From Pseudogymnoascus verrucosus (Eukaryota): a stretch of 64,000 nt of DNA. Where the stretch lies: NCBI GenBank assembly GCA_001662655.1, contig KV460218.1; one strand, written 5' to 3'. Shown here one piece after another: positions 45,021 through 64,000 of the stretch; the stretch's first letter is position 1; each line of letters opens with the position of its first letter. A model generated the notes under the pieces. That model made no database searches, was not told where the DNA came from, and worked only from the letters and a program-made list of their open reading frames with translations. The position numbers and the translations under genes were made by a program.

Positions 45021-45477
45021 GCATACTTACGTACGTTCAGTCACCCAGGTCACCTAGCTTACCCTCACTTACCCCTTGCCTCACCCTTCAGGCACCAGAC
45101 GGCCCTAGATATATGTAATGTCTACTCGCACGACTAAAACTAGCCTTTGCATCTAATCGCCTGCTTTGCTTTGTTAACTTTTTACTAAGCGAACCCCTAT
45201 AGATCTTATAAAGATCTTTCGACCATTTCCAACTAGGATATATCGACCTTCGAATTCCTTGGACGAGGGGGGTTTTAGCGGCGGTAAGGCAAGAATACGG
45301 ACCGGAGCCCCACTTGAACCCCTCCTAAGTTCCACCTGTCATAAACTTAATCTTACCCCTCTTTCTCCCCTTTACATACTTTACATACTTAAATCACAAC
45401 CTAACTTCTCTCTAATAGATACTATCGCACAACACCTGTTGGTCATCGCGACGGTACGGAGTACCAAGATAATCACC

Positions 45478-47079
45478 ATGGCGTCCCAACAGATTCGAGC
45501 CACGCCGCCCTCTAAAGACGCTATGCTCAATTCCTTCCTCGAAATCGTCCGTAATTACAATGCGCGCCCACCGCCCGGACGCAACAAGATCGTCTTTCCC
45601 GCGTGTCAACTCGTCGTGGAAATGCCCCTGCTTTTGAACCGGCCTAGCGAGCCCCTCCCATGCAGGGAGTCGCCGGCCGTGTTCGAGGCCATCAACGCCC
45701 ACTTCTCAGCCCAAGTGCACGCGTTTTTCAACGCACTGCATGACCTCGAGGATATGGCAGACAAACCGTCCTCGGACGACCTGGAACTCCTCCACCAGGA
45801 TGAATGGCTTCGGCCCGTCATCCAGATCACCAACCAGTCTTTCGACAACCCCGAAGGCAACGATGACTGCGTGCACCGCTGCTACCACACTCGCCGCCTC
45901 ACTGTCCAAAACCCGGAGAGCCTACCTCTCCTCAACCGCGTCATACAACTGCGCATCTTCCACGACAACGCTTACAGCCCAGATCCGGCCAACATGCGGC
46001 CCGTCTCCATGCGCACGCCCCTCGAACTCGCTACCCGCCTCCCTCACCTTCGCGAGCTACACTGCCCCTGGCTATGGGAGGAATTTCCCATTGCCTTCAC
46101 ATCTCAGGCGATGCGGAGAATTGCTCGCGTCTGGGAAGGCCCTTGGCGTGATGCCCGCGTTGAGTTCGGGCGGGGTGTGCGTCATGTCATGCCCTTGTTG
46201 CCGTCCTCCCTCACCAAGGTCAGTCTCTGGTTCTGGAGGACCAACGCCTATGGGCGTGAGGACCAAGCGGTGCAGATGCCTGACCTTGTCGGCGCATCCT
46301 TGTCGTCGCCATCGACCAATGAGTTTGAAGGCATGGACCCTGTGTCTCTTGGGTTGCGAGACCTGGGGAGTCGCCTGGAGGAACTAGACGTCATCGCGCT
46401 CATCACCCCTGATCTTTTCCATTCTAGCGGCGACGGTTTGTTATGGCCACGAATGGTGCACCTCAAAGTAGAATTCCACCCGTGCGCGCCTAACGGCACC
46501 TGGTACTTTTCCGGCCCGAGAGGCGAGAATCCCCACTCGACAGGATTCGCCATCACGAGAGAGGAGCACTACCCGTCCGAAGGCCTGGAATACGACGACG
46601 AGACGCACGCCTTATGGGATGATGAGGAGGAAGAGTACTGGGGTGATGAGGGCATATACGAACACTACACGCCCGATATGTTCCGTACGCGCCCCATCGT
46701 GGAGCGCATCAACCCTTTGCTCTTAGAGTTCGCCTCATCTCTACAACGGCAAAAGATGCCCTCCCTTCAAGACGCTGAGCTATTTACGTGGCTTACGTGG
46801 CGGCCCTCGAAGGACCGAGTTCAAGAGTATGAAGGGAGTGATGAGGTGCCTCCTACTACAGATGTGGAGCAGACCGTTATGTTCCGATGGGGGGTGAGAT
46901 ACGATGCGCCTAAAGGAGATGGGAAAGGAAAAGTGACGTGGCAGGTCGGTGACTGGAGGCCGGAGGACAAAGTCATTGCGGCGTTTAAGGATCTTGTGGG
47001 CGGGGAGGGGGAGAACATAGAGTGGAAAGCGTTTGAGTATATAGAAGAGAGGGAGCAAGATGTAGAAGCCTTTATCTGA
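45478..47079 (+). CDS. Uncharacterised 533-aa cytoplasmic protein with degenerate LRR-like segments
   Basis: Intact single exon from ACCATGG at 45478; no signal peptide; LPHLRELHC, LTKVSLWF, LEELDV, WPRMVHLKVEFHPCAPNGTWYFSGP; acidic stretch. Confidence 0.82.
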   Translation: MASQQIRATPPSKDAMLNSFLEIVRNYNARPPPGRNKIVFPACQLVVEMPLLLNRPSEPLPCRESPAVFEAINAHFSAQVHAFFNALHDLEDMADKPSSDDLELLHQDEWLRPVIQITNQSFDNPEGNDDCVHRCYHTRRLTVQNPESLPLLNRVIQLRIFHDNAYSPDPANMRPVSMRTPLELATRLPHLRELHCPWLWEEFPIAFTSQAMRRIARVWEGPWRDARVEFGRGVRHVMPLLPSSLTKVSLWFWRTNAYGREDQAVQMPDLVGASLSSPSTNEFEGMDPVSLGLRDLGSRLEELDVIALITPDLFHSSGDGLLWPRMVHLKVEFHPCAPNGTWYFSGPRGENPHSTGFAITREEHYPSEGLEYDDETHALWDDEEEEYWGDEGIYEHYTPDMFRTRPIVERINPLLLEFASSLQRQKMPSLQDAELFTWLTWRPSKDRVQEYEGSDEVPPTTDVEQTVMFRWGVRYDAPKGDGKGKVTWQVGDWRPEDKVIAAFKDLVGGEGENIEWKAFEYIEEREQDVEAFI

Positions 47080-47335: not shown

Positions 47336-49966
47336 CTAAGCACTAACGCCGACACAATACGCCTCCCCTAACCAATAATTCGTCACACAATCGCTACTCA
47401 CAGCCGGATTCCACGCCAAAAACTGTGCCAATGTAAGGCCCGCCTGGCTCGCCATATCCGTGCAGGATAGACCGTCAGTCACAACAGCCCACTTATTGCA
47501 GTTGTCTGGCGAGCCGGTCATGGTCGGTGCAGGAGGCGTTGGCTTAGAAGTAGTCGTAGGTGCAGTCGTCGTCGGGGTAGAGGCGCCAGCGACACCAACA
47601 CAGTACGCCTCGCCCAGCCAGTAGTTGGTGCTACAGTCGGAACTGACAGCCGGGTTCCATGCTAAGAATTGGGCGAGGGAAATGCCAGCCTGGGTGGCCA
47701 TGTCTGTGCAGGAGAGGCCATCAGTGACGAGGGACCACTTGTTGCAGTCGGCAGGCGAGCCGGTCATGGTTGGGCCAGGCGGTGTTGGTTTTGTGGTCGT
47801 GAGACCACCGGTACTTGTGGGAGCTGCGGTGGTTGTTGGACTGCTGTCGTCACCCGAGATACCAACGCAGTAGGCCTCGCCTAGCCAGTAGTTGGTGGAA
47901 CAGTCGGAACTTACAGCCGGGTTCCACGCTAGGAATTGTGCGAGGGAAATGCCAGCCTGGGTGGCCATGTCTGTGCAGGAGAGGCCATCGGTGACGAGGG
48001 ACCACTTGTTGCAGTCGGCAGGCGAGCCAGTCATAGTTGGGCCAGGCGGCGTTGGTTTTGTGGTTGTGGGACCGCCGGTGCTTGTAGGGGATCCGGTGGT
48101 TGTTGAACTGCCGTCGTCGCCCGAGATACCGACGCAGTAGGCTTCGTCAACCCAGTAGTTGATCGAGCAGTCTGATGAAACGGCCGGGTTCCATGCTAGG
48201 AATTGCCCGAGGGTGATGCCGGCTTCAGAGACCAGGTCCGCGCAGGACAACCCGTCCGTGACGAGGACCCACTCGTTACAGTCTGCGGGCGAGCCTGACA
48301 TGGTCGGTCCTGGTGGTGTCGCGGAAGTTGGGGTAGCTGTACTGTCCTGTTCGATATACCATGAGCCGCAGTAGCGAACGCCCTTTTCAAATGCGCACGC
48401 CGGATCCGAGGCGTTGCCGAGGCCGGGATTCCACAAGCCAAATTCCTCAAGGTCGACGTTGTAGGTGTCCGCGGCGAGTTGGCAGTTGCTGCCGAAGGTG
48501 GAGCCGGTGAGGTTGAACTGGAAGTCGTCTCCGGCGAAGTAGTGCACGCAGTCGTCGCGCGTGCCCGTGGCTTCGGGGAGGGGCGTGTATAGTCGGGGGT
48601 AGGGGTTCTCGGTGGCGTCGGGGCGCTCGGTGTAGGGGATTCCGGTGAAGGGCGCAGAGGGGTCCAGGGTGACACTGGCGTAACCAGGGCGGCCCGTATA
48701 AGTGTTGATATCGCCCACTGCGGCGACGCAGTAAGACTCCAATGCAAAGAGGTTGGTGCAGTTGGTATTGACGGCCGGGTTCAGGAAGAAGAAGTCGGGG
48801 AGGGTAATGCCGAATTTGATGGCAACGAGATTGCAATAGTCGCCTTGTTGGACCGAGTACCACCGCCCGCAAGGCTTGTCGGCACCGCCGGAGCCGTCTG
48901 CTGCGTCAGTGGGCTTGGGAGCCGCAGTGGTGGGGGTAAGAGGGGGCAAGGCGGAGGTGTCGCTGGGGATCACGAACTTGCGGCCAGGAGCATCGACGCA
49001 GATTTCGGAGCCGTTCATCTTGGGAAGGTTTGCGCACCCGTAGCTAATGGAAGGGTTCCAGGCAATGAGTTGCGTCTCGGTGATGTTGGCTGCTGCAGCC
49101 ACGGCCTCGCACGTCGCATTATTGGGGACGGTGACAGTGGTGCACTGGTTGGTAATGCAGAGAGAGGTGCCAACGGCGGGAAAGTTAGTGCAGAAGGCCT
49201 CTAGGTCGTTGTCGGCTAGCAGCCAGTTGGTGCCAACGCCCTGGCTCTTGGATATGGTGTAGCAGTCTTCTGAGGCTTTAATGGTGTAGGTTGACCCCTC
49301 ACACACCTTGGCCGTTGGAGCAGGGGCCGCCGTGAAGTAGTCGATGGTCGTTGTTGCGACGGGGCGCCCCGTAATGCTGCAACTCGCCGTCATGCTCTCG
49401 TACAGCGACATGCTGGCTGCAATAGGCCCGTCACCGTACGGTGACCCCTCGCGCAGCCGCAGACGCTCGACCAGGCACTTGTCGCAGTCATCGGGTCGCA
49501 CCTGGTCCGTGGTGTTGCTAATGTAGTTGAAAGGGCTAATACCGGGATCCGAGAAGGCCGCTGCCAGGGCTGCAACTGGTCCGCAGAAACGCCCCTCGTC
49601 GTCCTTGAGGCAGGCATTCTGAAAGTAGAACTGCAGCGCTCCAGGAATATAGACCGCCGCGGCCTCGACCTCAAGGTCGACCGTGATGGTCTGGTTCAAG
49701 CACCCGGACTGTACTGATGACCGCCATGTATCAAGAGCGGATGAGCAACCGGTGGTGCAGATGCGCGTCAGTGACGCGGGCGGGTAGAAGACGTCTGGGC
49801 GGAGGTCCCTCACCAGCGGATCGCAGGCCGTGACATCGACGGTCAGGGCATTGGTGCACTCTACGGTAAGTGTCGAGGGAAGACTATCTGGGTAGAGCAG
49901 CACCGTGGCAGATGCTGTTGATGCAATCCCGAGAGAGAGAAGCAGGTTGACGACGAAGGTCTGCAT
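47336..49966 (-). CDS. Secreted multi-LysM (CBM50) chitin-binding protein, ~8 LysM domains
   Basis: Signal peptide MQTFVVNLLLSLGIASTASA; fungal LysM motifs (YTIKASEDC, ITETQLIAWNP, YSVQQGDYC..FLNP, WNPGL, 4x C.KW..V..G.SC...GI.L.QFLAWNPAV..DC..YCV). Confidence 0.95.
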   Translation of the reverse strand: MQTFVVNLLLSLGIASTASATVLLYPDSLPSTLTVECTNALTVDVTACDPLVRDLRPDVFYPPASLTRICTTGCSSALDTWRSSVQSGCLNQTITVDLEVEAAAVYIPGALQFYFQNACLKDDEGRFCGPVAALAAAFSDPGISPFNYISNTTDQVRPDDCDKCLVERLRLREGSPYGDGPIAASMSLYESMTASCSITGRPVATTTIDYFTAAPAPTAKVCEGSTYTIKASEDCYTISKSQGVGTNWLLADNDLEAFCTNFPAVGTSLCITNQCTTVTVPNNATCEAVAAAANITETQLIAWNPSISYGCANLPKMNGSEICVDAPGRKFVIPSDTSALPPLTPTTAAPKPTDAADGSGGADKPCGRWYSVQQGDYCNLVAIKFGITLPDFFFLNPAVNTNCTNLFALESYCVAAVGDINTYTGRPGYASVTLDPSAPFTGIPYTERPDATENPYPRLYTPLPEATGTRDDCVHYFAGDDFQFNLTGSTFGSNCQLAADTYNVDLEEFGLWNPGLGNASDPACAFEKGVRYCGSWYIEQDSTATPTSATPPGPTMSGSPADCNEWVLVTDGLSCADLVSEAGITLGQFLAWNPAVSSDCSINYWVDEAYCVGISGDDGSSTTTGSPTSTGGPTTTKPTPPGPTMTGSPADCNKWSLVTDGLSCTDMATQAGISLAQFLAWNPAVSSDCSTNYWLGEAYCVGISGDDSSPTTTAAPTSTGGLTTTKPTPPGPTMTGSPADCNKWSLVTDGLSCTDMATQAGISLAQFLAWNPAVSSDCSTNYWLGEAYCVGVAGASTPTTTAPTTTSKPTPPAPTMTGSPDNCNKWAVVTDGLSCTDMASQAGLTLAQFLAWNPAVSSDCVTNYWLGEAYCVGVSA

Positions 49967-51000
49967 TATGAAGGTTGTCCAGGCCCAATCCCTCGATTGC
50001 GGCTTACCTTGGGACCTTTAATGAGACAAGTCAGCGGGGATAACTGCTTTCTGTGGGAGGAAGAGAGGGGGCTCTTCGTGTGGCTGACGGCGGCATCGCA
50101 TCGGAAGAAGGACATTTTTCTTAGGCAGGTTGCTGAGCATCTTTTAGACTCTTAGATGGAAACAGCATACAAGAATACGTAATTCGGCTTACAGCTCTAG
50201 GTTCCCCCCCTGTCCTTTGGCAGATATGGCTCATGGGTGGATGCTACCCTTATTCCACCTGTTACTAAAATAAGTGAGGGCAGTGAAACCGCCCGCTGTC
50301 ACAGGCCATCAAACTTAAATTGCGGGCCGCTACGGCTTGCCATCTTCGGCCAATTATCCTATTTCTTATTCGCGTAGGCAATATTATGCAGGTACAGTAC
50401 GCTTAAATGTAAGTCTAAGTCCCAATCTGGCCAAGCGATGCACGTTCAACGCCAAGACGGAAGACTGAAGAGATAACATAGCTCCGGGTATCAAGGACGG
50501 GATTGCATTTTCGCACTATCTTACTATCTTAATTAATATTGCAACGCCTAGAATCCTATAGGATTGTGAACCCTGACGGGACCTGCTTTTCTAGTGGTAG
50601 CTTGCATCTTGGGGGCTGCTTATTCATGTGTTAGTTGAGATCTAGACTCAGTGACTCGGGCATCACTTTGGCACTTCCGCCTTTTCCGAAGCAAGAAAAG
50701 GTCCGCATAATTACCGCAGAGATGCTCGAATGCAATGATACCCAAAAAGGTCCCCATTTACGCTTCTACCTGCCTAATAGGATGTCGATAGTGGCGAGAT
50801 CGGACCTTGATATTACCCTCGGCTGCGCGAAGGCGGAGTGAACTGTCATCGATGCCGAGTGCAAGGCCTGACCAGGGTAAGTGGAGTAGAAATGAATCCC
50901 ACCTACTCAAGATATCATCTTATACAAGATGCAGCGGCAGCTTGCTGCCCTCCAGGTCATAGACATTCCCGAGCAGGTACAACACCCGTGACGGACGGCC

Positions 51001-54000
51001 ATGCGGTATCCTATTGTCCTTGCTCTTCTATGGGGGCAGAGGCTCGCCGAAGGCTTGCCCTGGCACCAGGCAGCAGATCGTGCTGCTGTTGCTGATTTGC
51101 CAGCAACGTGTCGGAATCCCGTGTCGTGAGTGTCTTGTTGCCCCCTTTGAGCTGTCTTACTAGACGTGGTCTAATTCGTGATTGCCGCAGACCGTTTGAC
51201 TACTCAGCCAAGCTCAGACGCGAATATGAGCTGCCACTGTGTCGGGACGGCGACGAAACTCTTGGGGTGACTCCCTTCCTCGGCGCCATGGACACGCCGT
51301 CTTTACTGAGCGGCCGAGCAACAGACGACGACTACACGTGCGGGCCGGACCGGCCTTGCGCCAACAAGGCTTGCTGCCCCAAGGCCACGCTGTCGTGCAA
51401 CTACGGCGAGGAGGCGTGCGGCACATCGGGCATCTCGCCCAACGAAGTCTGCTGGTCCAACTGCGATGCCAAGTCTGAGTGCGGCAAGGACGCCAAAGTG
51501 CCCGGCCAGGAATGCCCCCTCAACGTCTGCTGCGGCAAATGGGGCTTCTGCGGCATGACCGAGGATTACTGCGACAAGAAAGATCATGGTACCACCGGCG
51601 GCTGCCAGTCCAACTGCGACCAGCCTGGCCCTAAGAACAAGGCCAACTCGCAGACCCGCATCATCGGCTACTACGAGGGCTGGCGAGCTAACAGCGCCTG
51701 TCAGGGCATGGGGCTCAAGGACATCCCCGTAAACTCCCTGACGCACCTGTACTTTTCCTTTGCGTCCATCACCCCGGACACGTACAGCATCGCGCCTATG
51801 GACGGCATCGCCGGGTCTCTGTTCTCCGAGTTCACCAACCTCAAGAAGAAGAACCCCGCCCTCAAGACCGTCATCGCCATTGGTGGATGGACCTTCAACG
51901 ACCCGGGCCCAACCCAGAAGGTCTTCAGCGATATGGTGGGCTCGGCACAGACCCGTAAGACCTTCATCGACAACCTGTTGAGCTTCCTGCGCGAGTACGC
52001 CTTCGACGGCGTCGACTTTGACTGGGAGTACCCCGGAGCTGATGACCGCGGCGGCGTCGACGCCGATGGCAAGAACTTTGTCACATTCCTCAAGGAGCTC
52101 GACGACGCCAACAAGAAGCAACCCGTCAAGTACGTCGTTTCCTTCACGTTGCCTACCTCATACTGGTACATGCGTCACTTCGACCTCAAGGCCGTCGACC
52201 ACGTCGACTTTGTCAACGTCATGTCCTACGACCTGCACGGCGTCTGGGACGGCAAGAACCCAATCGGCCAGAAGATCTACGGGCACACGAACATCACTGA
52301 GATGGAGCAGGCCTTTGACCTTTTCTGGCGCAACGACGTTCCCGCGAACAAGCTCAACATGGGCCTCGGATTCTATGGCCGCGCCTTCCAGCTGCAGGAC
52401 CCCTCGTGCAGCAAGCCGGGGTGCGGCTTCAAAGGCGGCGCTACCAAAGGAGGCTGCAGCGGCGAGTCGGGCATTTTGAGCTACCGTGAGATCATGGCCG
52501 TTATTGATGCCAAAAAGATCAAGCCCGTACATGACAAGAAGGCAGGCGTTAAGTATATTACGTGGAACAACGACCGTACGTTAATATTCTTTGTTCTCCC
52601 CCATTTAGGGTGTCATCGAGGGTCGTTTTACTCTCGGACCGCCCCCGAACTACCCCTGAAACACCCAAAACAAGAATAATACAGCTAACAATGTTGGGTA
52701 GAGTGGGTGTCGTACGATGACGCCGACACCTTCTCCCAGAAAAAGGACCTAGCTAAGGACCTAGGGCTGGGTGGCTACCTCATCTGGGCCATCGATCAGG
52801 ATGACGAGCACTTGACGGCACTGCAGGCCGTCATCTCGCCTAAGAAGCTAGGTGACTTGGGCGCGGCCGGCGACAAGGACGACTGGCAATCATCTAACAA
52901 GCATTGCTACATCACATCCTGCGATGGCAAATGCGACACCGGCGACATCAAAATTACCGACCAACCCTGCGGCGACGACGACAAGCGCAGCAAGCTCTGC
53001 TGCCCGCTGTCTGGGGCCCCGAACCCCAAAGAGTGCGCATGGCGCGGCAACCCCCCCTTGTGCAACGGCCACTGCCATGACGACGAGGTCATGATGGAGA
53101 TGAACAAGTGGGGCGACGGTGGTGGGTGCAATGATGGCAACAAGGCCTACTGCTGCAAGAGCCCGCTGGCCGAGGAAAACAGCTGCTACTGGAGTGGTGT
53201 TGGCGGCTCCTGCAAAGGCGATGACTTGCCGCTGACATTTTCGGGCACCGTTCTAACCATCTTAGAAGACGTGGCCAAGGTCATCCTTCGCGTCGTCGGG
53301 CGCGCCTATCCTCTCACCGCCCTAGCAGGAGAAGCGCTCCTCTTGGTGCTCGACGAACTCGATCTCGACACAGACAAGTACTACTGCTGCCCTAAAGAAG
53401 ACATCCCCAAATGGAAGAACTGCGAGTGGTTCGGCAAGCCCGGCAGCTGTTTCGACGGACACTGCCCAGACATGACATATGCCCAGCTGACCGACAGCTA
53501 CTTCGGCGGTGGCGAGACTTGCGGCTGGCAAGCTTCTCGAGTACGCACCTTTTGCTGCGAGCCGTCCGAGGACCCCTTGTTTCTGCCCGTACCCCTAGGG
53601 AATCTTTTCCAGAACCCGCCAGATAGTGATAGTGTCGACACCGACTTCTCCCTCGAAACGGACAAGGACTCAGACACGGAGCAGAACCCCAACGATGCAG
53701 CCTTCCAGTTCGTCGTGCTCGCTTCGCCCGAGGAGCTGCAGGTCTCCATCGACAAGCGCGACGGCTCCCACTGGGACGTATTCTCAGGCTGCGACTCGGC
53801 CATCGGCGATGAAGGCCCCCACACGGTGCAGATGGTATGCACAGACTTCTCCGAGGGTAGCAACTGCCACAAGATCGGTCTCGGCCATGGTGTCCCTGGC
53901 ACCATCTTGGAGATGCCCGCCGGGTGCGGCCCCGGAAAATACGCCATTGCAAAAGACATGGTCCCAGCCTCTGAAAAGGTCCGTCTTCCCCGTCACCTCG

Positions 54001-56582
54001 AACACCTTTCAGCCGCCCACACCCCCATCGTCTACGATTTGACCTTCGACTACGACTTTACCCGCGTACCCCGCGACCTTGGCGACACCCAGATGCGCAT
54101 TGACTTCAGCAACCAGGACGACTATTGGAACACAGTCGTCTCGGCGGCCGGAAACACTAAGAAAAAAATCAAGCGCTCCCTCGCCGAGGCTGGGGGCAAC
54201 CACGCCCGCTGGTTGGAGGAAGAATACCGCGACGACTACCATTTTGGGGGACTCTCGCGTCGTGACCTCGAGGAGCGCTGGTTCGGCTCAGGTGTCCTCG
54301 ACTGGCTTGCCCGCATTGTCCGCCCGGAAATCAAGCGCGAGTTTACTTATGATTACCAGGACACCCTGACAGCCAAACTCATTGACGAGACCTGGCAATG
54401 TACCCGCAACGACATCAACTACGAGGGCCACATCCTCGCCCAGGCCCTCCTTAAAGTGAACATAGCGACAAGCTTCGGGTTTACCCTAATCGTCACAAAG
54501 CTGACCCCTCCCCTCGACATGTCCCAAAGCTACCTAACCTTCTATAACAAGGGCGAGATCACGGGAGTTCTAACCCTCGAAGCCGTTGCTAAGTTTTCCT
54601 ACCACAAGGGGGACGTCATCGTGAACATCCCTTTCCCAGGCGCCTCCTTCAAAATCCCAGGAATCGCAACTATCGGCCCGCAGCTGACGGTCGAGGGCAG
54701 CATCGACGCCTCGCTGACCCTGTCGGGCAAGGTGGAAACTCGTCTCGAGTTCGCCAACTGGGAGGTTCGCCAAGTCCTTCCCGACAACGGCGACAGTAAC
54801 TACACGCCCAAAGAGATCGGTGACGGCGACCCGGACCTCAAGCGCACCGGCGACAACGAGGACCTGGACGAGCCGACCTTCTATGCCGGCGCCCAGGCCA
54901 TCGGCGACGCGACGGCCAAGATCTCAGCGGCGGCTGAGTTCGGCATCCGCTTCGACAAGCGCTGGGACGTCGAACCGGCCGCCGCGGCTGTTGTGGCCGA
55001 GGCCAGCGTCATGGTCAAGATGGGCGTCGGCATCTCCACCAAGGACACCTGCCCCTTTACATTTGGGGTCGATGTCGGCGCACGTCTGTTTGCGCGCGCA
55101 ACAGCACCCGGCTTCAAGTGGCCAGGAGCCGAGGTGGCCATCACGCCTGCTTATAAAAAGCCCATCATCGAGGGCGGCACATGTCCGGGCCTAGGACCCC
55201 TCCCGACCAAGCGTGATCTTAACTCCATCCTCACCATTGATGGCAACGATACCCGTAGCCATAGCCATGGCCATGGCCACACCCATACCCACAATAGCCT
55301 AAGCCACGGCCATGGCCACATCCACAATAGCCGCGCCCTGGTCAAACGAGCAGCGGTCTGGGGTCCAGTACTCAGCGTGCCCGTGGGAAGCTACTTCTGC
55401 CCACCCGAAACCGATGACAGCGCTGGCCCGGGTACCATCTGCTCTAAGATCGGGTACGCCTGGGATGAGGACAATGTTATCGAGGACGCACTTCTAAGGC
55501 GGGCCCTCGAAAAAAGGAACTCAAAGCCGGCCGAAATCTGCGGCCAAAGAATCACCTTCGAATACCCGTCACCCTCGGAGGCCAAAGCTCTGAAGAACCC
55601 GACCTATGGCTTCGAAAGCACCGACTGCAAGGACTACAAGTTTGGCGCTCTCCCGGCCGATGTCCCCGGTGTCGACTACGAAGCCGAGCACGTTCTCGAA
55701 GCTCAACTCATCAAACAGTTCTTCGAGTATGTCGCTAAGAATGTTGGCCCCTTCCCTCACCCCGACCCTGAAAAGGCTAAGTTGGGCACGACACTCCAGT
55801 TCTGCCCGCTCGTCAAACTGCTCTGGAACGTTCCGGTTGAAATCCCGAACCTCGATACCGCCTCGGGGATTGGCGCCCTCCTTACTCCCTATAAACATGT
55901 CATCAACCAGTTTCCCACCAAAACATGGAAGAACAAAGAGTACGTCCTCCTCGACACTAACATCAACTCCCCGCCTAAGGCGGGAGCTTGGGCCGGATTC
56001 AGTAGCAAGGGCAAAAATATCCAAATCGTTTCTCTCAAGAAATGGCTCGGCACCGAACCCGACAACAACCCCCAAAGTCCCTCCGGCCAAACCCCCCCCA
56101 AATACCCCAGCACTAGCAAAATCGCCACCATCGGCGGTGCCGAGGAGATCATGAAGTCGATGCGCGCCATCCTCGGCTCGCGCCTGTACCACAACACCCC
56201 CGCCGTCTCGACCATTCTCAAAGCCCAAAAGGAGCGGGTAGGCGAGGTGCTCCGGCGGCTCGACACCGAGGTCCTGCCCGCCAATCCCAAGAAAGAAGGC
56301 TGGGCGCCCTGGGCGCCACTAGGGCTGAAGGGAATGTGGGACACGTTCATGACGGGCAAGATGGCGCTGGTTGTTACCAAGTCGAACATGGTAACTAACG
56401 ATATCTTGCCGCGCATGCAGGCCTTGTGGGCGGACCAGGCCGCGAGGGACGCGGCTAAGATTGACGATAAGGATAAGGCAGATGTAGTGGAATTGAAGGA
56501 GAGGAAACAGAGGCTGATTGATACTATTGATGCGTTCGCTGCTATTTTGCAGACGACGCCGGCGTGGCTGTTAGCATTTTAG
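51001..56582 (+). CDS. Subgroup C (killer-toxin-like) GH18 chitinase with hevein/CBM18 domain and long C-terminal extension; join(51001..51125,51191..52575,52702..56582), ~1796 aa
   Basis: Signal MRYPIVLALLWGQRLAEG; canonical introns 51126-51190 and 52576-52701 give a continuous frame; CPLNVCCGKWGFCG (CBM18); AIGGW, FDGVDFDWEYP (intact DxxDxDxE), MSYDLHG, WAIDQD. Confidence 0.93.
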
Positions 56583-56619
56583 AGGGGTCATTTTCTGTTA
56601 CGATATGTTAGGGGGTTAT

Positions 56620-58998
56620 CACTAGTATATAATTAAGCTTGTTAGCTTACGTTTCATTATAGACTAAACTAATTTAAGTTAAAACTTGCATAGAAATGCT
56701 CTTATAATCTATGCTATAACACTATAACACTTTCTTCCTACCTTAATATAAGACCTGTTTTCATTCTTCCCCTTTATTTAATTCTATGCTTAAATAGCCA
56801 TTTCTACACTAAAGATAGACCCTTCCCTATTTTCCCTAAAGTACTAAGCCCTATCTCTCTAATCTATATCCTATTATCTAACTACTAATACTAAGCTAGC
56901 ATCTCTTATTTAAATAGCATAGTTAGATAAAATTAACCTTAACATTACTATCTAGTAGTTAGTAGGTATCCTAGGTAAATAGGAAGCTTAGGACATTATA
57001 ATAGAGTTATATAGGTATTCTACCTTAATAGTTACTATTATATAATAACGTATTTCCTAGGCAAGCTAGTTACTTAGGCAAGCTAGTTACTTAGGCAAGC
57101 TAGTTACTAAAACACTAAAATTAACTATTACTACCTACTACTATACTACTACCCTATATAATAACCCTTATTTAATTGTAATTAATTCCTAGCACCTCTT
57201 ATATAAGGACATAGGGAACTATATTATAAGAAGTTATATATAGGAATATAAGTTAGATATAAGTTAGTATAATCCTATAGGTCTCCTATAAAGGATATAA
57301 AAAAGATAAAGGGGGAACCCTCTATTCTTATTTTCCTTCTATACCTAAAACCCCTCTAACTTAACTAACCCCCTATTTACCTAAGGCTTCCTTATACTAT
57401 ATACCTAAGGCTTATAGTTATAATTAAACTATAACTACCCTAAGTCTTAAGGGCAGCATATAACAACTATAACTAACCTAAGTAAGGAGGCATCCTTATA
57501 CTACCCCCTACCTTTAAAGGGTGCTTTATCCTTAAAGTATATATATAGAACTCTATATTTAGTTTATTATATAAGTTATAGGTATTATAGCCTAAGTTGT
57601 TGCTAAGGAGGGTAGAGGAGTAAGTGTTTCTTTATTTAAGGTAGTAAGTTATATATAAGGGTCTAAGTTAGTATCGAATTAAGTCTAATTAGGGCTATAG
57701 ACTCTAGATTGTTTGTGTAAGGAGAGATAGATCGCGCTAAACCTAATTTAGACAGCTTTGTTATAAGCTAGAATATGAAATCGAGGTTCGCCTAATTCCT
57801 GTTGTTTTCTTTATAACAACAACGCTAAACCCCCCCTCTAAGACTAGTAAGTAGCCCCTCTTAAACGTATAGAAGGATACTAATTGATTGTTTTTAGATA
57901 CAAAACCAATTCGAACGATTCGGTAGGTTGAGGAACTGTACTAGCATAGTAGTGATAACTTAGGCTAGGCTAACGGGAATTGCAGATTTCTAATTTAAAG
58001 ATGCTAGTTCCTATGCCCTCTAGGGCTTTTGCAGATTCCTTCTACGTCCTGTACGTCTGCTGCCTTTAGGCAATTTCCTATAGGGCTGTAGCCTATACTT
58101 ATGTCTAGTCCTCAACTAGCTTAAAGTGCCATTACTACACTTCGTAGCATTCTATGTGTGTTCTAGTAGGTTTCCTATTGCTTTTTAGTTTTGCTTTTAG
58201 CTTGTTCTTAGGTTTGTTTAGTGTTGACTTAGTAGGAATAGCTGCCCTAGTTCCTAGGGACTAAGTTCGCTGCTATCGTCGCTACTAAAGCAGCTACCCC
58301 CCTTGTCCCTACTAACGTCGTTAACGCTGCCCTTAAGGCTAAGTGTGTCCTATTGCTTGCTACTGCCTCTGTCCCTAAGTTCTAGGACAAGGCGACTTAG
58401 GACCTCTATAAGGAGGCCTATACAACTTACGCAGCCCTTAAGTCTCTTAATTTAAGACTTAAGGTAAGTGAATCTCCTTTCCTAGTAGGGTATTAGTGCT
58501 GACCTAGGTTAGGCTGTTCGTTTATCGCTACGCTATCTTTAGACGGAGTAGGTAGAGGTTCCTAGCCTCTTAAAGGAGGTAGTAAACGCAGTAGAGGTAG
58601 GTGCTGTAGCTGTCGTTGCCGTTGCTACAAAGTTAGTCCTAGCACCTACCCCCTATAGGAAAGAGAAGGAGAAGGAGAAGGAGGTAGAGAATAGGGTTAG
58701 GGCCTCCTATAGAGAGTAGGGGGTAGGCCTTATGTTAGAGGGAACTTAGGTGTAGTCTTTTATGTAGGGTCACTTTAACCCTTTGTCTCTTATAGTAGTA
58801 GCCGCTTGTTACGACGCTAGTAAGATGTTTAGGAAGGGTGGCTTCTATAAGGGCTATAGCTCTAAGGGTGCCCTAGCTTAGAGGGTGTTTAGTTTAGTGT
58901 TGTAGGTAGCAACAACGCTGTTTTTCCCTACTTTGCTGTGCCTCTTATAATTGTAGCTTAGCTTGCCTATCTCCTATTCTATAATCTAACTAGGTAGG
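56620..58998. mobile_element. Heavily RIP-mutated AT-rich repeat relic
   Basis: No ORFs >=60 aa in 2.4 kb, strong TpA excess and CpA/TpG depletion; 3x GGCAAGCTAGTTACT(T)A at ~57060-57110. Confidence 0.7.
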
Positions 58999-59481
58999 TG
59001 TAACGCTGGGTCTTAAACTATAAGACTCACAGAGGTTTCGTTGCGTTGGTTTACTTAACAGAGGAGGCAGGGGATTAGACACAAAGGCTTTCGTAAAACA
59101 CGTTACAGTATATAACAAATACTATATTGAGTTGAGCACGAAGCTCCTATCTAAGAACTAACTATCTACTTATATAGTGGCGTCGTGCCAAAGGGGATAG
59201 TTAGGATAGTTAGATAGCCCTAACTATCCCAACTATCCAACTATCTATCACGTGAGCTATTCTCTTTCCGGTACCTGTGATTCTTCCAGTACCTGTCCAT
59301 CCGGTACCTCCTAATCCTCAGGTGCCTAACTGTCTTCCGGTACCTGTAAACCCAGGTACCGGACACCCATCAGGTGCCTGATAACTGACCCTGCCTTAAA
59401 GGTGGTCAAATCGCTAACATTCTCATTACTACTATAACCGGTGTGTCGGCGAAACTGTAGCCGTAAACGCTAGCCGTAACA
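58999..59481 (-). repeat. 3' LTR (483 bp) of the Gypsy element
   Basis: TGTAACG...CGTAACA termini; polypurine tract GGAGGGGGA on the minus strand at ~59487-59495 next to it. Confidence 0.85.
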
Positions 59482-59595
59482 CTAGGTCCCCCTCCGAGAG
59501 GCCTAGTCCCTAGGTCTTGCTGACTAAGGAAATGTGCTAACTACTTAAGTGGGGTGATGCCCACCACTATCCATGGGGCAGGTCAGGCTGCAACC

Positions 59596-60150: not shown

Positions 60151-63100
60151 GGTTCCCCCTCAACTCCCACGAGTTATCCGTAGGTTCGTAATCTTTCTAT
60201 TTGATTAAAAACTCTTCTCGGCGTCCTACTAACCTTCTGTCTAGGATCGCCTCGACCTCATATTCGATAATTTCATTCTCGGGTTGGAGTTCGGTGTCTG
60301 TTGCAATTAGGGCGTCGCCTCTTGCTGGTTCTAATAATGAGACATGAAACACTAGGTGGAGTCTGGAGTTCTTAGGTAGCTGCAGCTTGTAATTAACTGA
60401 GCTGACTTTTCCTAATATCTTGAATGGTCCCAATTTCTTGAAGTCCAACTTCATGCTTGGTCGTTTCGTTTTGATGTGTTTCTAGAGTAGGTATACTTTA
60501 TCCCCCTCCTTAAAGGCAGGTTCCATACTGCGCTTCTTGTTTGCGTATGCGGCGGATTGTTCATTTAAGAACTAGATGTCCGTCGCAAGTTGTTTCTGGA
60601 AGGAAAGTATCTTCGATACTTCTAACGTTCCTTCCTTAGAGCGAAATTTATCTAGTCTCGGCGTTTTGTACGCTTCTAGTTGCCATCCGTTATTAGCAAA
60701 GAAGGGTGAGACTTTTGTCACCTCTGATGGTGCTAAGTTATATGCGAATTCTGCTAAATGTAGGTACTGAACCCAGTTGTCCTGTTCAGTATTAACATAG
60801 CTTCGCAAGTATGCTTCTAACGTCTGATTAGTTCGTTCTGTTTGTCTATCCGTTTGTAGATGAAAAGCTGTGGACAGCTTGTGGTTTGTTCCGAGCTGCG
60901 CCATGACTGTCTGCTAGAATTTGGATGTGAAGAGCTTATCTCTATCCGAAATTATCTCGTCTAGTAGCCCATGCGCTACAACAATGACTTTTAGAAAGAT
61001 ATATGCTAACGCCTTCACGTCTGACGCTTCTTTAAACGGCGTGAAGTGTGCTTCTTTTATAAGCCTGTAGTTAGAGACCATAATGGAGTCTATAACAAAT
61101 CCTGTCATTGGCTCTTTCGATGCTAGCAACTTGACAATGAAGTCAATTGCTATCGAGGACCATGCTCGTTTTGGTGTTGGTGGGGACTTCAAAAGTCCAT
61201 ATGGTGCGTGTCTATTTGCTTTTGACTTCTGGCAAATGTCGCATCCTAACACAATTGTTTCTACCTGCTTCCTTAGACCTAGGAAGTAGTAGTGTCGTGC
61301 AATTCGTTCGAAGGTTCGTGTTACTCCCTAATGACCGTGTGCTGGCAACGAGTGTTGTTCTTGCACTAGCGGGCGTCTCATTTGACTTGGGACATACACT
61401 AATCCTTTGAATCGGATCAGCCCTTGTTCGTTGATGGAGAAGTTTCCTTCGACTTTGTTTAGGGTTCGCTTCGCTATTTCGTCTGTTGCGTAAGCGTTCT
61501 TGAGTCTCTGCTCAAGTTCCGTGTCTTCCACGATGGCGATCGTGGCTAGCAGTTCGTTGTATTGCATTCCTGCGTCTGTCTTCTTTAGTATTGCTCTAGG
61601 CCTTTCCTCCTTCGGGCCGATGTAGTCGGTCCTTCTGCTGAGAGCATCTGCTCTTGCATTCTCGGAGCCTTTGCGATAGGTTATCGTGAAGTTGTAGGCT
61701 GCGAGGGTTTCTGCCTAGCGGACTTGTCTGCGGTTCAAAACCTTAGTCGTGGTGAAGTATATGAGGTTCTTGTGATCTGTCTACACTTGCATAGTGTGGG
61801 TGGATCCCTTAAGATATACGCGCCACTGCTCAAAGGCAACGACAATAGCTAGTAGCTCCTTGTTGTGGATGTCATAGTTGAGCTCCGCGGGTGACAGTTT
61901 CCTAGAGTAGTACGCGATTGGTTTGAACTTACCGTTCTCGCCTGGCTGATTTAGACATGCTCCAATCGCGAAGTCAGAAGCGTCCGTCTTAAGGACGATC
62001 TTCTTTGCAGGGTTAAATGTCGCAAGGATGGGTGCCTCCGTGAACTTCGTCTTAAGTTCCTAGAAGGCAGCCTCCGCTTTGTCTGTCCATTTGAACACGA
62101 GATCCTTCCTAGTGAGCTCTGTGAGTGGTTGAGCTACCTTGGAATATCCCGCAATGAACCGACGGTAGAAGTTGGCGAAGCCTAAGAAGGCTTGTACTTC
62201 CTTGACCGTGGTTGGTGTTGGCCATTCTAACACTGCCGTGACCTTTGCTTGGTCCATCTTGATGCCGTGCGTTCCGATAATGTAGCCTAAGAATTCGACT
62301 TGGTTTTTATGGAACTCACATTTCTCTAGCTTCAACAGTAGGTTGTATTCCTTCAGCTTCTAGAGGACGAGCTTGACATGCCTAGCATGTTCGTCCTTGT
62401 TTGCTAAGTATACTAGTATATCATCTAAGTAAACGATCGTGAATATGTCTAGATATTCGTGCAAAGCGTCATTCATTAAGCGTTGCATGGATGCGGGGGC
62501 GTTGGTTAGCCCGAAGGGCATGACTTGATATTCGAATAGGCCATAGCGGGTGCGGAATGCTGTTTTCCACTCCTTGCCGTCGGCTATCCGGATTAGGTTG
62601 TACGCGCCGCGTAGATCTAGCTTGGTGAAGATCTTGGCTCCCTGGAATCTATCGTGTAACTCATTAATTAGCGGTAAAGCGTACCGGTCCTTTATCGTTA
62701 TGTTGTTCAATGCTCGATAGTCCACGCATGGTCGTTTGCTTCCATCCTTCTTGGGAACCTATAACATCAGGCTTCCCGCAGGAGATTTAGACGGTCTGAT
62801 AAATCCTTTCTTAAGGTTATCGTCGATATATTCTTTCAGTAGTTTCAACTCATCTGCTGACATCTGGTATATTGGTCCGAACGGTAGACTCTTTCCTTCT
62901 TCCAAGGGTATCACATGATCCTATGGTTGGTGCTTAGGAAGCGCCTCGTTCTTGGGGCCTTCCTAGAATAGCTGCTCGTATTCCTCATACTCCACCGGTA
63001 TACTCGTTAGTAAGGGTGCCTAGGCTAGGTCACTGGGCTCTGTGGAGGTCGCACACACCTCGCGTCAGCCCTAGGAGGTCTTCTCCCGTTATGGCGTGTC

Positions 63101-63480
63101 CGTTCGTTGTTCACACGCGCACTGGCTCATTACAACTTTCTCGTTCTACCAGTCGATCTGGGGGTTGTGTTTCTTAAGCCACAGCACACCAAGGATACAT
63201 GCATGATTGTCTATGTGTACGATGTCGAATTAGATCGTTTCCTGGTGTCTGCGTAGCATGACCATTTCTAATGGGACCGTCTCGTAGGTCACCATCCCCT
63301 TGTTGGTCGAGATGGGCTCTCCATCTACTACCATTAACGGGTAAGGATCGGTTTTCAATTGCGTCTTGAAACCTTGAGTGTCTGCTACTTTCTTTGTCAT
63401 AAAGTTGCCCGTTGCTCCTAAGTCAATCATGGCTCGGAGGTGTCGCTGTTGTATCTTAGCGACTACATATAGCTGCATGC
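60035..63480 (-). pseudogene. Retrotransposon pol (PR-RT-RH-IN-chromo) with RIP stops
   Basis: Collinear ORF fragments in the track separated by TAG/TAA codons at W/Q positions. Confidence 0.9.
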
Positions 63481-64000
63481 TGCCTCCCGTGGCGCACAGC
63501 TGCTTCGTACTAGGCCTCTCTTTGTCACTCGCCGGTGGCCTACCGTTGAGGACTCCTAGTTTTTTGACTCGTCCGAGGAGTAATAGTGGTGTTCATCATC
63601 CTCTATGGGCGGTCCTTGGGAAGATTGTCCTCCCTATCCTTCTGCTTCATCTAGCAGGTGCGGGTATCTCTCGTATACCTGTTGTTGTTTCTTTAACGGT
63701 AGTTCTCCTTTAGACTGACTTCGTCTAAGGGCATGAATTTGGTCTATATCCGTAAAGTAGACCTAAGGTGCGATTTTTGGAAATAGTCGATACTGGGTCT
63801 TTTTCCGTAGGTGACTCTCGTAGTCATTGTACTTGCAGTGTTCCTAGAATATATATGGGTGCTAGGGGTGATCAATCCTTGATGCATCCAACTTTGTCAA
63901 TTCCTGTTCCTCCTTTGTCTTGCCCGTGAGCTCGGATTTCTCCATGGTTACACGTAACCTTTCTACGTCTCCATCGGTGGGTTTGTAGTCCATAGCAGCT

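Follow-up and report, generated by a model that had tools for sequence, protein, structure and literature searches.

A chitinase gene in a 64,000-nucleotide stretch of the Pseudogymnoascus verrucosus genome (assembly GCA_001662655.1, contig KV460218.1; the whole stretch is hereafter the window) encodes a protein that ends in a 354-residue domain. This domain is almost certainly a real conserved module, appears to belong to a family that has so far gone undescribed, and is very probably delimited by a Kex2-type processing site. Its N-terminal lobe (N-lobe), as judged from sequence comparison and a structural model, on balance probably possesses a His-Me-type centre. The full scenario, in which a Kex2-released, His-Me-like nuclease cassette is fused in cis to a killer-toxin-like chitinase of the C-I type, is put forward tentatively, at slightly below an even chance; for this scenario we infer Kex2 cleavage, the His-Me fold, the nuclease chemistry, entry into a target cell and toxicity. 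A preliminary description of the DNA had proposed such a cis-fused, Kex2-released nuclease toxin; its domain, its predicted processing site and its residues hold up and weak HNH-type signals accompany them, so that the proposal is supported in part, with a putative His-Me fold.

The domain is encoded at 55518-56582 on the plus strand as 354 residues and a stop codon, and begins NSKPAEICG. The preliminary description had it as a Cys-poor, Lys-rich domain of about 354 residues following LLRRALEKR, and the composition agrees: the domain contains 3 Cys in 354 residues (0.85%) and 9.6% Lys, against 53 Cys in the 1442 residues upstream (3.68%) and 6.2% Lys. The Glu-His pair that it had pointed to lies at 55686-55691 inside YEAEHVLEAQ, and the later element YVLLDTNINSPPK lies at 55941-55979, both as described.

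HMMER, run exhaustively over 1.84 billion cluster representatives, detected 161 relatives with E<=1e-3, of which 50 have E<=1e-10 and 9 have E<=1e-30, and word-indexed searches added three further true relatives near the length of the domain and 20 longer proteins of 790-1789 residues. Most of the longer proteins are chitinases of about 1700-1790 residues ending in the same domain, with source names that include Pseudogymnoascus, Neurospora tetraspora, Truncatella, Pseudomassariella, Gnomoniopsis, Colletotrichum, Nemania, Chaetomium and a Chaetothyriales species, and relatives of 1750-1790 residues with a common architecture are present in at least 10 named species. Ten divergent members were looked up, and the six with species names come from Hypoxylon, Paraphaeosphaeria, Pyrenula, Arthroderma, Massariosphaeria and Zopfia. 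All named relatives belong to Pezizomycotina, and their records are hypothetical or uncharacterised except for two cluster co-members, annotated as 'glycosyl hydrolases family 18 protein' and 'Rad3-related DNA helicase'. The window's own domain has no match in Pfam, NCBIfam, PADLOC or PHROGs. Full-text literature searches, which did not extend to the table of chitinases and clusters that might list relatives (Table S1 of Heneghan, Salzberg & Wolfe, bioRxiv 10.1101/2024.10.25.620242), returned no description of it.

The boundary of the domain is marked by a dibasic pair throughout most of the family. A [KR]R pair lies within 16 residues before Cys8 (numbering within the domain) in 37 of the 45 members that have at least 20 upstream residues, and the usual site is LEKR, 9-10 residues before Cys8, whatever the carrier. 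The domain ends within 10 residues of the C-terminus in 47 of the 51 members whose sequence reaches the end of the domain. The earlier proposal of an autonomous domain with a Kex2-type boundary agrees with this pattern, and Kex2 would be expected to cleave there. The three conserved Cys of the domain, of which Cys8 lies 8 residues beyond the predicted cleavage site, and two Cys in the segment ahead of the domain leave room for a zymocin-like disulfide tether. It is very improbable that the domain is never released and instead serves as a permanent chitinase module for folding, oligomerisation or wall anchoring, with the KR motif unused. Internal pairs such as RRL at domain residue 246 (residue 1688 of the precursor) do show that not every dibasic pair is a site, but LEKR sits at a fixed distance from Cys8 in most members on any carrier, and near-domain-only proteins of 368, 355 and 294 residues are on record as 'uncharacterized' or 'hypothetical', although some of these may be incomplete gene products. 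The invariant polar residues described below also look catalytic rather than structural.

The domain behaves as an exchangeable tip. The 55 members with more than 120 residues upstream fall into 10 carrier clusters by BLAST (31 of chitinase type, then 10, 7 and seven singletons), and many members have a signal-like N-terminus by a crude test. Pfam recognises DUF7029 and DUF7223 in one carrier, gives a weak lectin match in another and finds nothing in most. Identity to the two full-length relatives P0159 and P0160 declines from 95% in GH18 to 88-91% in the middle of the protein and 81-82% in the linker, and is 65-66% in the N-lobe and 71-76% in the C-terminal lobe (C-lobe). A conserved carrier with a fast-evolving, exchangeable C-terminal tip is, at the level of sequence, the signature of a polymorphic toxin, and it fits the 'killer-toxin-like' label.

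A different role for the same chemistry would be that of a His-Me-type nuclease acting outside cells as a DNase, for nutrition or for clearing wall or biofilm DNA during chitin digestion. Secreted Endonuclease I-type His-Me nucleases (Vvn/EndA, PF04231) have an E-H...N centre and bear disulfides that they need, and the three conserved Cys of the domain (46/47, 48/55 and 57/59) would suit an oxidising extracellular setting. Moreover, no immunity-like family was recognised among the open reading frames (ORFs) of the window, which would suit the extracellular DNase better than a toxin. Nevertheless, this role is quite improbable, given that the N-lobe has diverged far more rapidly than the carrier (identity of 65-66% versus 95%) and that the domain has been shuffled among 10 carrier types, both of which are more in keeping with proteins engaged in conflict than with a housekeeping scavenger. 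Induction of group-C chitinases by other fungi has also been reported (Heneghan et al.).

Structure prediction with AlphaFold2 gave a mean predicted local distance difference test score (pLDDT) of 35.5 for the domain as a single sequence, and a pLDDT of 94.9 with a predicted template modelling score (pTM) of 0.90 when the 61-sequence alignment A2 was supplied. In the latter model, residues 1-160 form an alpha+beta lobe and residues 205-346 form long helices. A strand at residues 54-57 leads into H58, and a second strand at residues 143-146 is immediately followed by a helix at residues 147-157 that bears N150 and K154. The N-lobe is acidic, with a median isoelectric point (pI) of 5.6, and the C-lobe has a median pI of 9.4 and is basic in 49/52 members.

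Conservation was counted in alignment A2. Among the polar residues of the family, those of the EH motif and of the second motif rank highest in conservation, and the conservation of the EH pair and the Asn, which the preliminary description had set beforehand as a test of its own proposal, is nearly complete: E57 is present in 57/57 sequences, H58 in 56/57 and N150 in 58/59. E61 is invariant in the EH motif (57/57), and N150 is accompanied in the second motif by E141 (56/59), L145 (56/58) and K154 (53/60). Further conserved positions are K3 (44/46), C8 (46/47), C37 (48/55) and Y54 (52/57) in the N-terminal part, F68 (59/59) and C96 (57/59) in the middle of the N-lobe, and Y224 (59/60), Q237 (56/60), R240 (59/60), L270 (59/59) and W274 (60/60) in the C-lobe. 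A single member, the 368-residue P0004 named from Hypoxylon trugodes, lacks H58 (H58R), and the same member is the only one to lack N150 (N150R). Joint loss of the two residues is expected if both serve one active site, and P0004 is probably a catalytically dead copy.

Several comparisons point from the N-lobe towards the His-Me/HNH nucleases. The succession of a strand and His followed by a strand and an Asn-bearing helix, seen in both secondary structure and sequence, is the order found in beta-beta-alpha-metal nucleases. In that superfamily the catalytic His closes the first strand, generally with Asp or Glu ahead of it, and the helix behind the second strand bears the Asn or His that binds the metal. 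EHVLEAQ resembles the (T/L)IEH(V/I)LPQ motif of bacterial DUF1524 domains, and the spacing of E-Y-V-L-L-x4-N equals that of G-N-L-F-L-I-x4-N in Escherichia coli YfjM. The named neighbours of residues 1-165 by ESM features are exclusively of the HNH clan (GmrSD_C/DUF1524, GH-E and AHH). One member, P0055, matches Pfam GmrSD_C on the strand-helix segment (E=0.0011, 19.2 bits), and a hidden Markov model (HMM) of our own, built from 25 diverse DUF1524 domains, matches the strand-helix segment of P0055 with E=5.7e-4 among 173 family members, with weaker rows that place EH onto EH and N onto N. Profile alignment with hhalign places N150 onto the metal-binding Asn of DUF1524 with a score of 17.45, which was reached by 1/60 column shuffles, and EH onto the DUF1524 EH with a score of 17.1, reached by 1/100 shuffles. 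HNH families of PHROG are grazed by 3/39 members at E of about 0.1, and the only sub-threshold Pfam and PHROG matches with an assigned function are of HNH type.

Other results weigh against a His-Me finger or give it no match. About 83 residues are inserted between the strands at 54-57 and 143-146. The ESM scores of the named neighbours are 0.76-0.79, and by the calibration of the tool values under 0.9 count as no more than leads. GmrSD_C (PF07510) is touched by only 1/39 and 1/72 members, the best at 19.2 bits against a cut-off of 23 bits, so that the domain falls outside PF07510 by the criterion of Pfam itself. All hhalign probabilities lie below 4%: alignments to DUF1524 score 17.5-18.0 with probability <1%, comparisons with 28 close GmrSD C-termini and with 76 more diverse ones likewise gave probability <1%, and the score of the strand-helix segment alone was reached by 14/100 shuffles. 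Foldseek of the whole model against PDB and BFVD returned nothing at E<=1e-3, a profile of alignment A2 searched against PDB sequences gave only noise at E>3, neither a consistent family nor an HNH signal emerged when 39 members were scanned with PADLOC and NCBIfam, and no match in the profile comparisons made reached a curated threshold. The VIA rows for the whole model covered residues 161-354 only, with none for the N-lobe. The hhalign negatives weigh little, since a control in which hhalign compared DUF1524 with Endonuclease I, both of them accepted His-Me families, was equally weak (score 15.6, probability 0.24%), indicating that the method lacks power for this superfamily. The links to His-Me/HNH nucleases thus all agree in direction and are all weak. 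The suggested likeness to beta-beta-alpha-metal nucleases is retained in the order of elements in a confident model and is without a significant fold or profile match, and the AlphaFold and Foldseek check that had been recommended for it divides in the same way, with the model supplied by the former and no match by the latter.

H127 was also considered as the catalytic His, as it is the partner that hhalign prefers for the DUF1524 EH, and was rejected because it is His in only 39/58 sequences and Trp in 10. It lies in another motif, P-x-x-H-[IV]-A-x-x-[FY]-P (55887-55916, domain residues 124-133), which resembles the EHIxPQ of DUF1524 and stands at the canonical HNH spacing from N150.

The main rival to a nuclease is a Kex2-released secreted effector or enzyme in which E57-H58-x-x-E61, E141, N150, Y224 and R240 would form another hydrolase site, for instance one acting on wall or membrane, or a metal-dependent binding site, with the likeness to HNH coincidental. 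This is unlikely, but several observations favour it. The fold and profile searches tied the domain to no nuclease at a significant level, the N-lobe is acidic, and the conservation of Y224, Q237, R240, D249 and W274 in the helical lobe shows that the functional unit exceeds a His-Me finger. In addition, when ESM neighbours of the whole domain were sought with member P0001, the best one outside the fungi was a Pseudomonadota cluster of 226-residue proteins auto-named 'Chitin-binding protein' (score 0.90, 170 shared features); alignment A1 had no match in 401 sampled Pseudomonadota genomes. On the other hand, all named neighbours of the N-lobe and all functional sub-threshold matches are of HNH type, both motifs are collinear on DUF1524, and H58 and N150 are lost together in the sole deviant member, all of which argue for the nuclease.

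The gene model of the chitinase was derived from tblastn of the full-length relatives P0159 and P0160 against the window and inspection of the DNA. The gene occupies 51001-56582 on the plus strand in three exons (Table 1), and its product of 1796 residues carries the C-terminal domain as residues 1443-1796. The GH18 domain (Pfam Glyco_hydro_18, E=3.8e-59) has an intact DxxDxDxE motif, DGVDFDWE, and is apparently active. No LysM match was found by Pfam in the scanned parts of the chitinase. The features of group C of the GH18 family are present, namely DxxDxDxE, a chitin-binding module and large size, and the relatives carry PF00704 and PF00187 only, so that the protein looks like a group C 'killer-toxin-like' chitinase that by its domain content (CBM18 without LysM) would fall into subgroup C-I. 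KR or RR pairs occur in the precursor at residues 598, 855, 994, 1048, 1217, 1256, 1340, 1385 and 1441. The His-rich linker ahead of the domain could bind metal, and P0011 likewise has a His-rich stretch before its domain.

Sequencing contigs 90-99% identical to the window, and hence from a close relative and not the exact sequence, were compared with the model; three of the runs were called RNA by guess. Intron 2 is skipped exactly (52576-52701) in two RNA-like runs (X6 and X8) of a relative about 95% identical, intron 1 is skipped in three RNA-like runs of the relative (51120-51190) with 6 letters differing at the joint, and both introns are read through in the DNA-like run X5. A single 900-nucleotide contig of the relative spans 55218-56120 and crosses the LEKR boundary. 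As these contigs splice as modelled and cross LEKR, the orthologue is transcribed and spliced as modelled, with carrier and domain on one message. RNA-like contigs of the relative from three runs are without 6 bases at 55777, an in-frame difference of two codons in the inserted part of the N-lobe.

The proposed mechanism begins with a secreted precursor of 1796 residues that consists of a signal peptide, CBM18, GH18, a long Cys-rich middle, a His-rich linker, LEKR and the 354-residue domain. Kex2 in the Golgi would cut it at LEKR and at other KR sites, the part with chitinase and CBM18 would attach to chitin in the wall of a rival fungus, and the C-terminal domain, freed or still tethered by a disulfide, would be the toxic cargo. 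The acidic N-lobe would provide a His-Me active site in which H58 acts as general base and E57 and N150 hold the metal, and the C-lobe, basic and helical, would make contact with nucleic acid or membrane. The domain recurs across Pezizomycotina as a cassette at the C-terminus of no fewer than 10 unrelated secreted carriers, and in this it may be likened to a polymorphic toxin tip. The broader proposal, that C-I chitinases of filamentous fungi are self-contained A-B killer toxins whose His-Me-type nuclease warhead is a mobile cassette on at least ten kinds of carrier, making up a eukaryotic counterpart of polymorphic toxins, is possible but doubtful.

Table 1. Features of the chitinase gene and its neighbour in the window.
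Feature	Coordinates	Strand	Basis or remarks
Exon 1	51001-51125	+	Start codon, signal-peptide-like N-terminus (MRYPIVLALLWG...); tblastn of P0159/P0160, translation
Intron 1	51126-51190	+	Gene model from tblastn and DNA
Exon 2	51191-52575	+	CBM18 and most of GH18 domain; Pfam
CBM18 chitin-binding module	about 51477-51617	+	Pfam Chitin_bind_1, E=1.9e-10
GH18 catalytic motif DGVDFDWE	52005-52028	+	Motif located in exon 2
Intron 2 (GT..AG, 126 nucleotides)	52576-52701	+	Sequence; skipped by contigs of runs X6 and X8
Exon 3, including stop codon	52702-56582	+	One unbroken exon of 3.9 kb
Exon 3, carrier part	52702-55256	+	End of GH18, Cys-rich repeats, weak DUF7223-like stretch, KR sites; Pfam
His-rich linker SHSHGHGHTHTHNSLSHGHGHIHNS	55257-55331	+	Just ahead of the ALVKR site
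ALVKR site, then 56-residue pre-toxin segment with two Cys (FCP...C)	55335-55517	+	Ends in LEKR
LEKR Kex2-type site, end of ...DALLRRALEKR	55506-55517	+	Directly before the C-terminal domain
N-lobe of C-terminal domain (domain residues 1-165), alpha+beta	55518-56012	+	AlphaFold2 model, conservation
Conserved N-lobe Cys: Cys8; Cys37; Cys96	55539-41; 55626-8; 55803-5	+	Conserved N-lobe Cys
Putative catalytic residues: E57-H58; E61; E141; N150; K154	55686-91; 55698-700; 55938-40; 55965-7; 55977-9	+	Conservation
C-lobe of C-terminal domain (domain residues 200-354), basic helical bundle	56115-56579	+	Conserved Y224, Q237, R240, D249, L270, W274
Stop codon	56580-56582	+	
ORF of 893 codons with LysM domain (Pfam E=3e-16)	47339-50017	-	Head-to-head with the chitinase gene

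The LysM ORF beside the chitinase gene matches the pairing of LysM genes with group-C chitinases in the literature. It is adjoined by an ORF of 633 codons (45178-47076, plus strand) with no Pfam match. Downstream of the chitinase gene, 56600-59500 falls to 38% G+C and is nearly devoid of ORFs; beyond it, a Ty3/gypsy element in decay on the minus strand (60900-63600) retains RVT_1, an integrase zinc finger and an aspartyl protease in several short frames; the remainder of the window contains ordinary fungal genes. P0159 and P0160, whose source names come from different classes (Pseudogymnoascus and Neurospora tetraspora), share 95% identity with the chitinase in its GH18 part and 82-84% over its full length. 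Identity this high is unusual for such a distance and may reflect transfer between fungi.

Group-C chitinases have been called 'killer-toxin-like' since 2005. It was only in 2024 that C-II members were tied to real toxins, encoded by neighbouring genes (Heneghan et al.), and no explanation of C-I members and their long C-terminal extensions was found in the literature searched. If the proposed scenario is true, a cis-fused, Kex2-delimited, fast-evolving catalytic module supplies the toxic activity that C-I chitinases have lacked and complements the system of C-II chitinase and separate gamma-toxin described in 2024. The module would then represent a novel family, absent from Pfam, of fungal toxin or nuclease domains, and fungi would shuffle toxin tips among carriers as bacteria do. 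In practical terms, the family would be a pointer to antifungal proteins of biocontrol interest, and would give a name to about 160 'hypothetical' sequence clusters in annotation.

Among known nucleases, the closest comparisons are with Endonuclease I and GmrSD_C/DUF1524. For the former, hhalign puts the Y-x-x-E-H-V of the domain on the EHV motif of the family with a score of 15.1 and probability <1.5%, which is not significant, and the second motif does not align. GmrSD_C/DUF1524 (PF07510), the His-Me domain of type IV restriction enzymes, shares a Glu-His pair after a strand (EHVLEAQ here, TIEHVLPQ in bacteria), followed by a second strand and a helix with the Asn at equal spacing ([N/E]-hhhh-x4-N). 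However, the gap between the motifs is about 83 residues here and about 20-30 there, the central Asn is replaced by Glu (E141), and the domain described here belongs to secreted eukaryotic proteins, has three conserved Cys and comes with a basic helical lobe that is obligatory.

Among killer-toxin-like chitinases, the reference systems are zymocin, from Kluyveromyces lactis pGKL1, and the zymocin-like chitinase/gamma-toxin clusters of Pezizomycotina. Shared features are a GH18 chitinase precursor of the killer-toxin-like kind that is secreted and bears chitin-binding modules, dibasic processing sites, the notion of a nuclease cargo dependent on a chitinase for delivery, a LysM gene adjoining the chitinase gene and, close to the junction, a conserved Cys by which the carrier could hold the cargo. 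In the accessible parts of Heneghan et al., C-II chitinase genes adjoin separate gamma-toxin genes and sometimes immunity genes, LysM-only genes occur in chitinase clusters, and C-I chitinases are without LysM and have no toxin assigned to them. The zymocin-like clusters reported there are all C-II, whereas the carrier here has CBM18 without LysM and is C-I-like, and no immunity gene was seen among the window ORFs. The cargo also differs, being cis-fused, 354 residues long and two-lobed where that of zymocin is a separate small gene, and the predicted chemistry is of the His-Me, DNase type and not that of an anticodon RNase. The hallmarks of gamma-toxins, according to the same source (bioRxiv 10.1101/2024.10.25.620242), are a conserved Glu near mature position 8, secretion as a small protein of its own and a Cys at the C-terminal end. 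Here the Glu-8 hallmark is absent and the conserved Cys of the domain are N-terminal; position 6 is Glu in the window and variable in the family (Lys in 12/45), and no Glu among domain positions 1-12 appears in the ranked-conservation list. The description of the domain as functionally like zymocin gamma is no more than an analogy.

Fusion of an effector to a group-C chitinase has a precedent in the Hce2-domain C-II chitinases (Heneghan et al.; mBio 2026 mGem, PMC13556262), which resemble the present protein in carrying a cytotoxic effector domain, but with a different, small Cys-rich domain and on LysM-bearing C-II chitinases. Hce2 is the only fused effector domain mentioned in the accessible parts of the 2026 mGem, and Goughenour et al., in the portion available, give the domain content of C-I without a C-terminal module. 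The bacterial polymorphic toxins with HNH-clan tips such as AHH and GH-E (Zhang et al. 2012, PMC3482391) provide the remaining comparison. A search of that paper for the term 'chitinase' returned nothing, and it names zymocin-type toxins as the nearest eukaryotic counterpart of polymorphic toxins. The domain described here differs from the bacterial toxins in being fungal, in its proposed release by a Golgi protease and in having no adjacent immunity gene among those found. Like them, it is a C-terminal cassette on varied secreted carriers and a tip that outpaces its carrier in divergence, and its ESM neighbours include the AHH and GH-E clusters.

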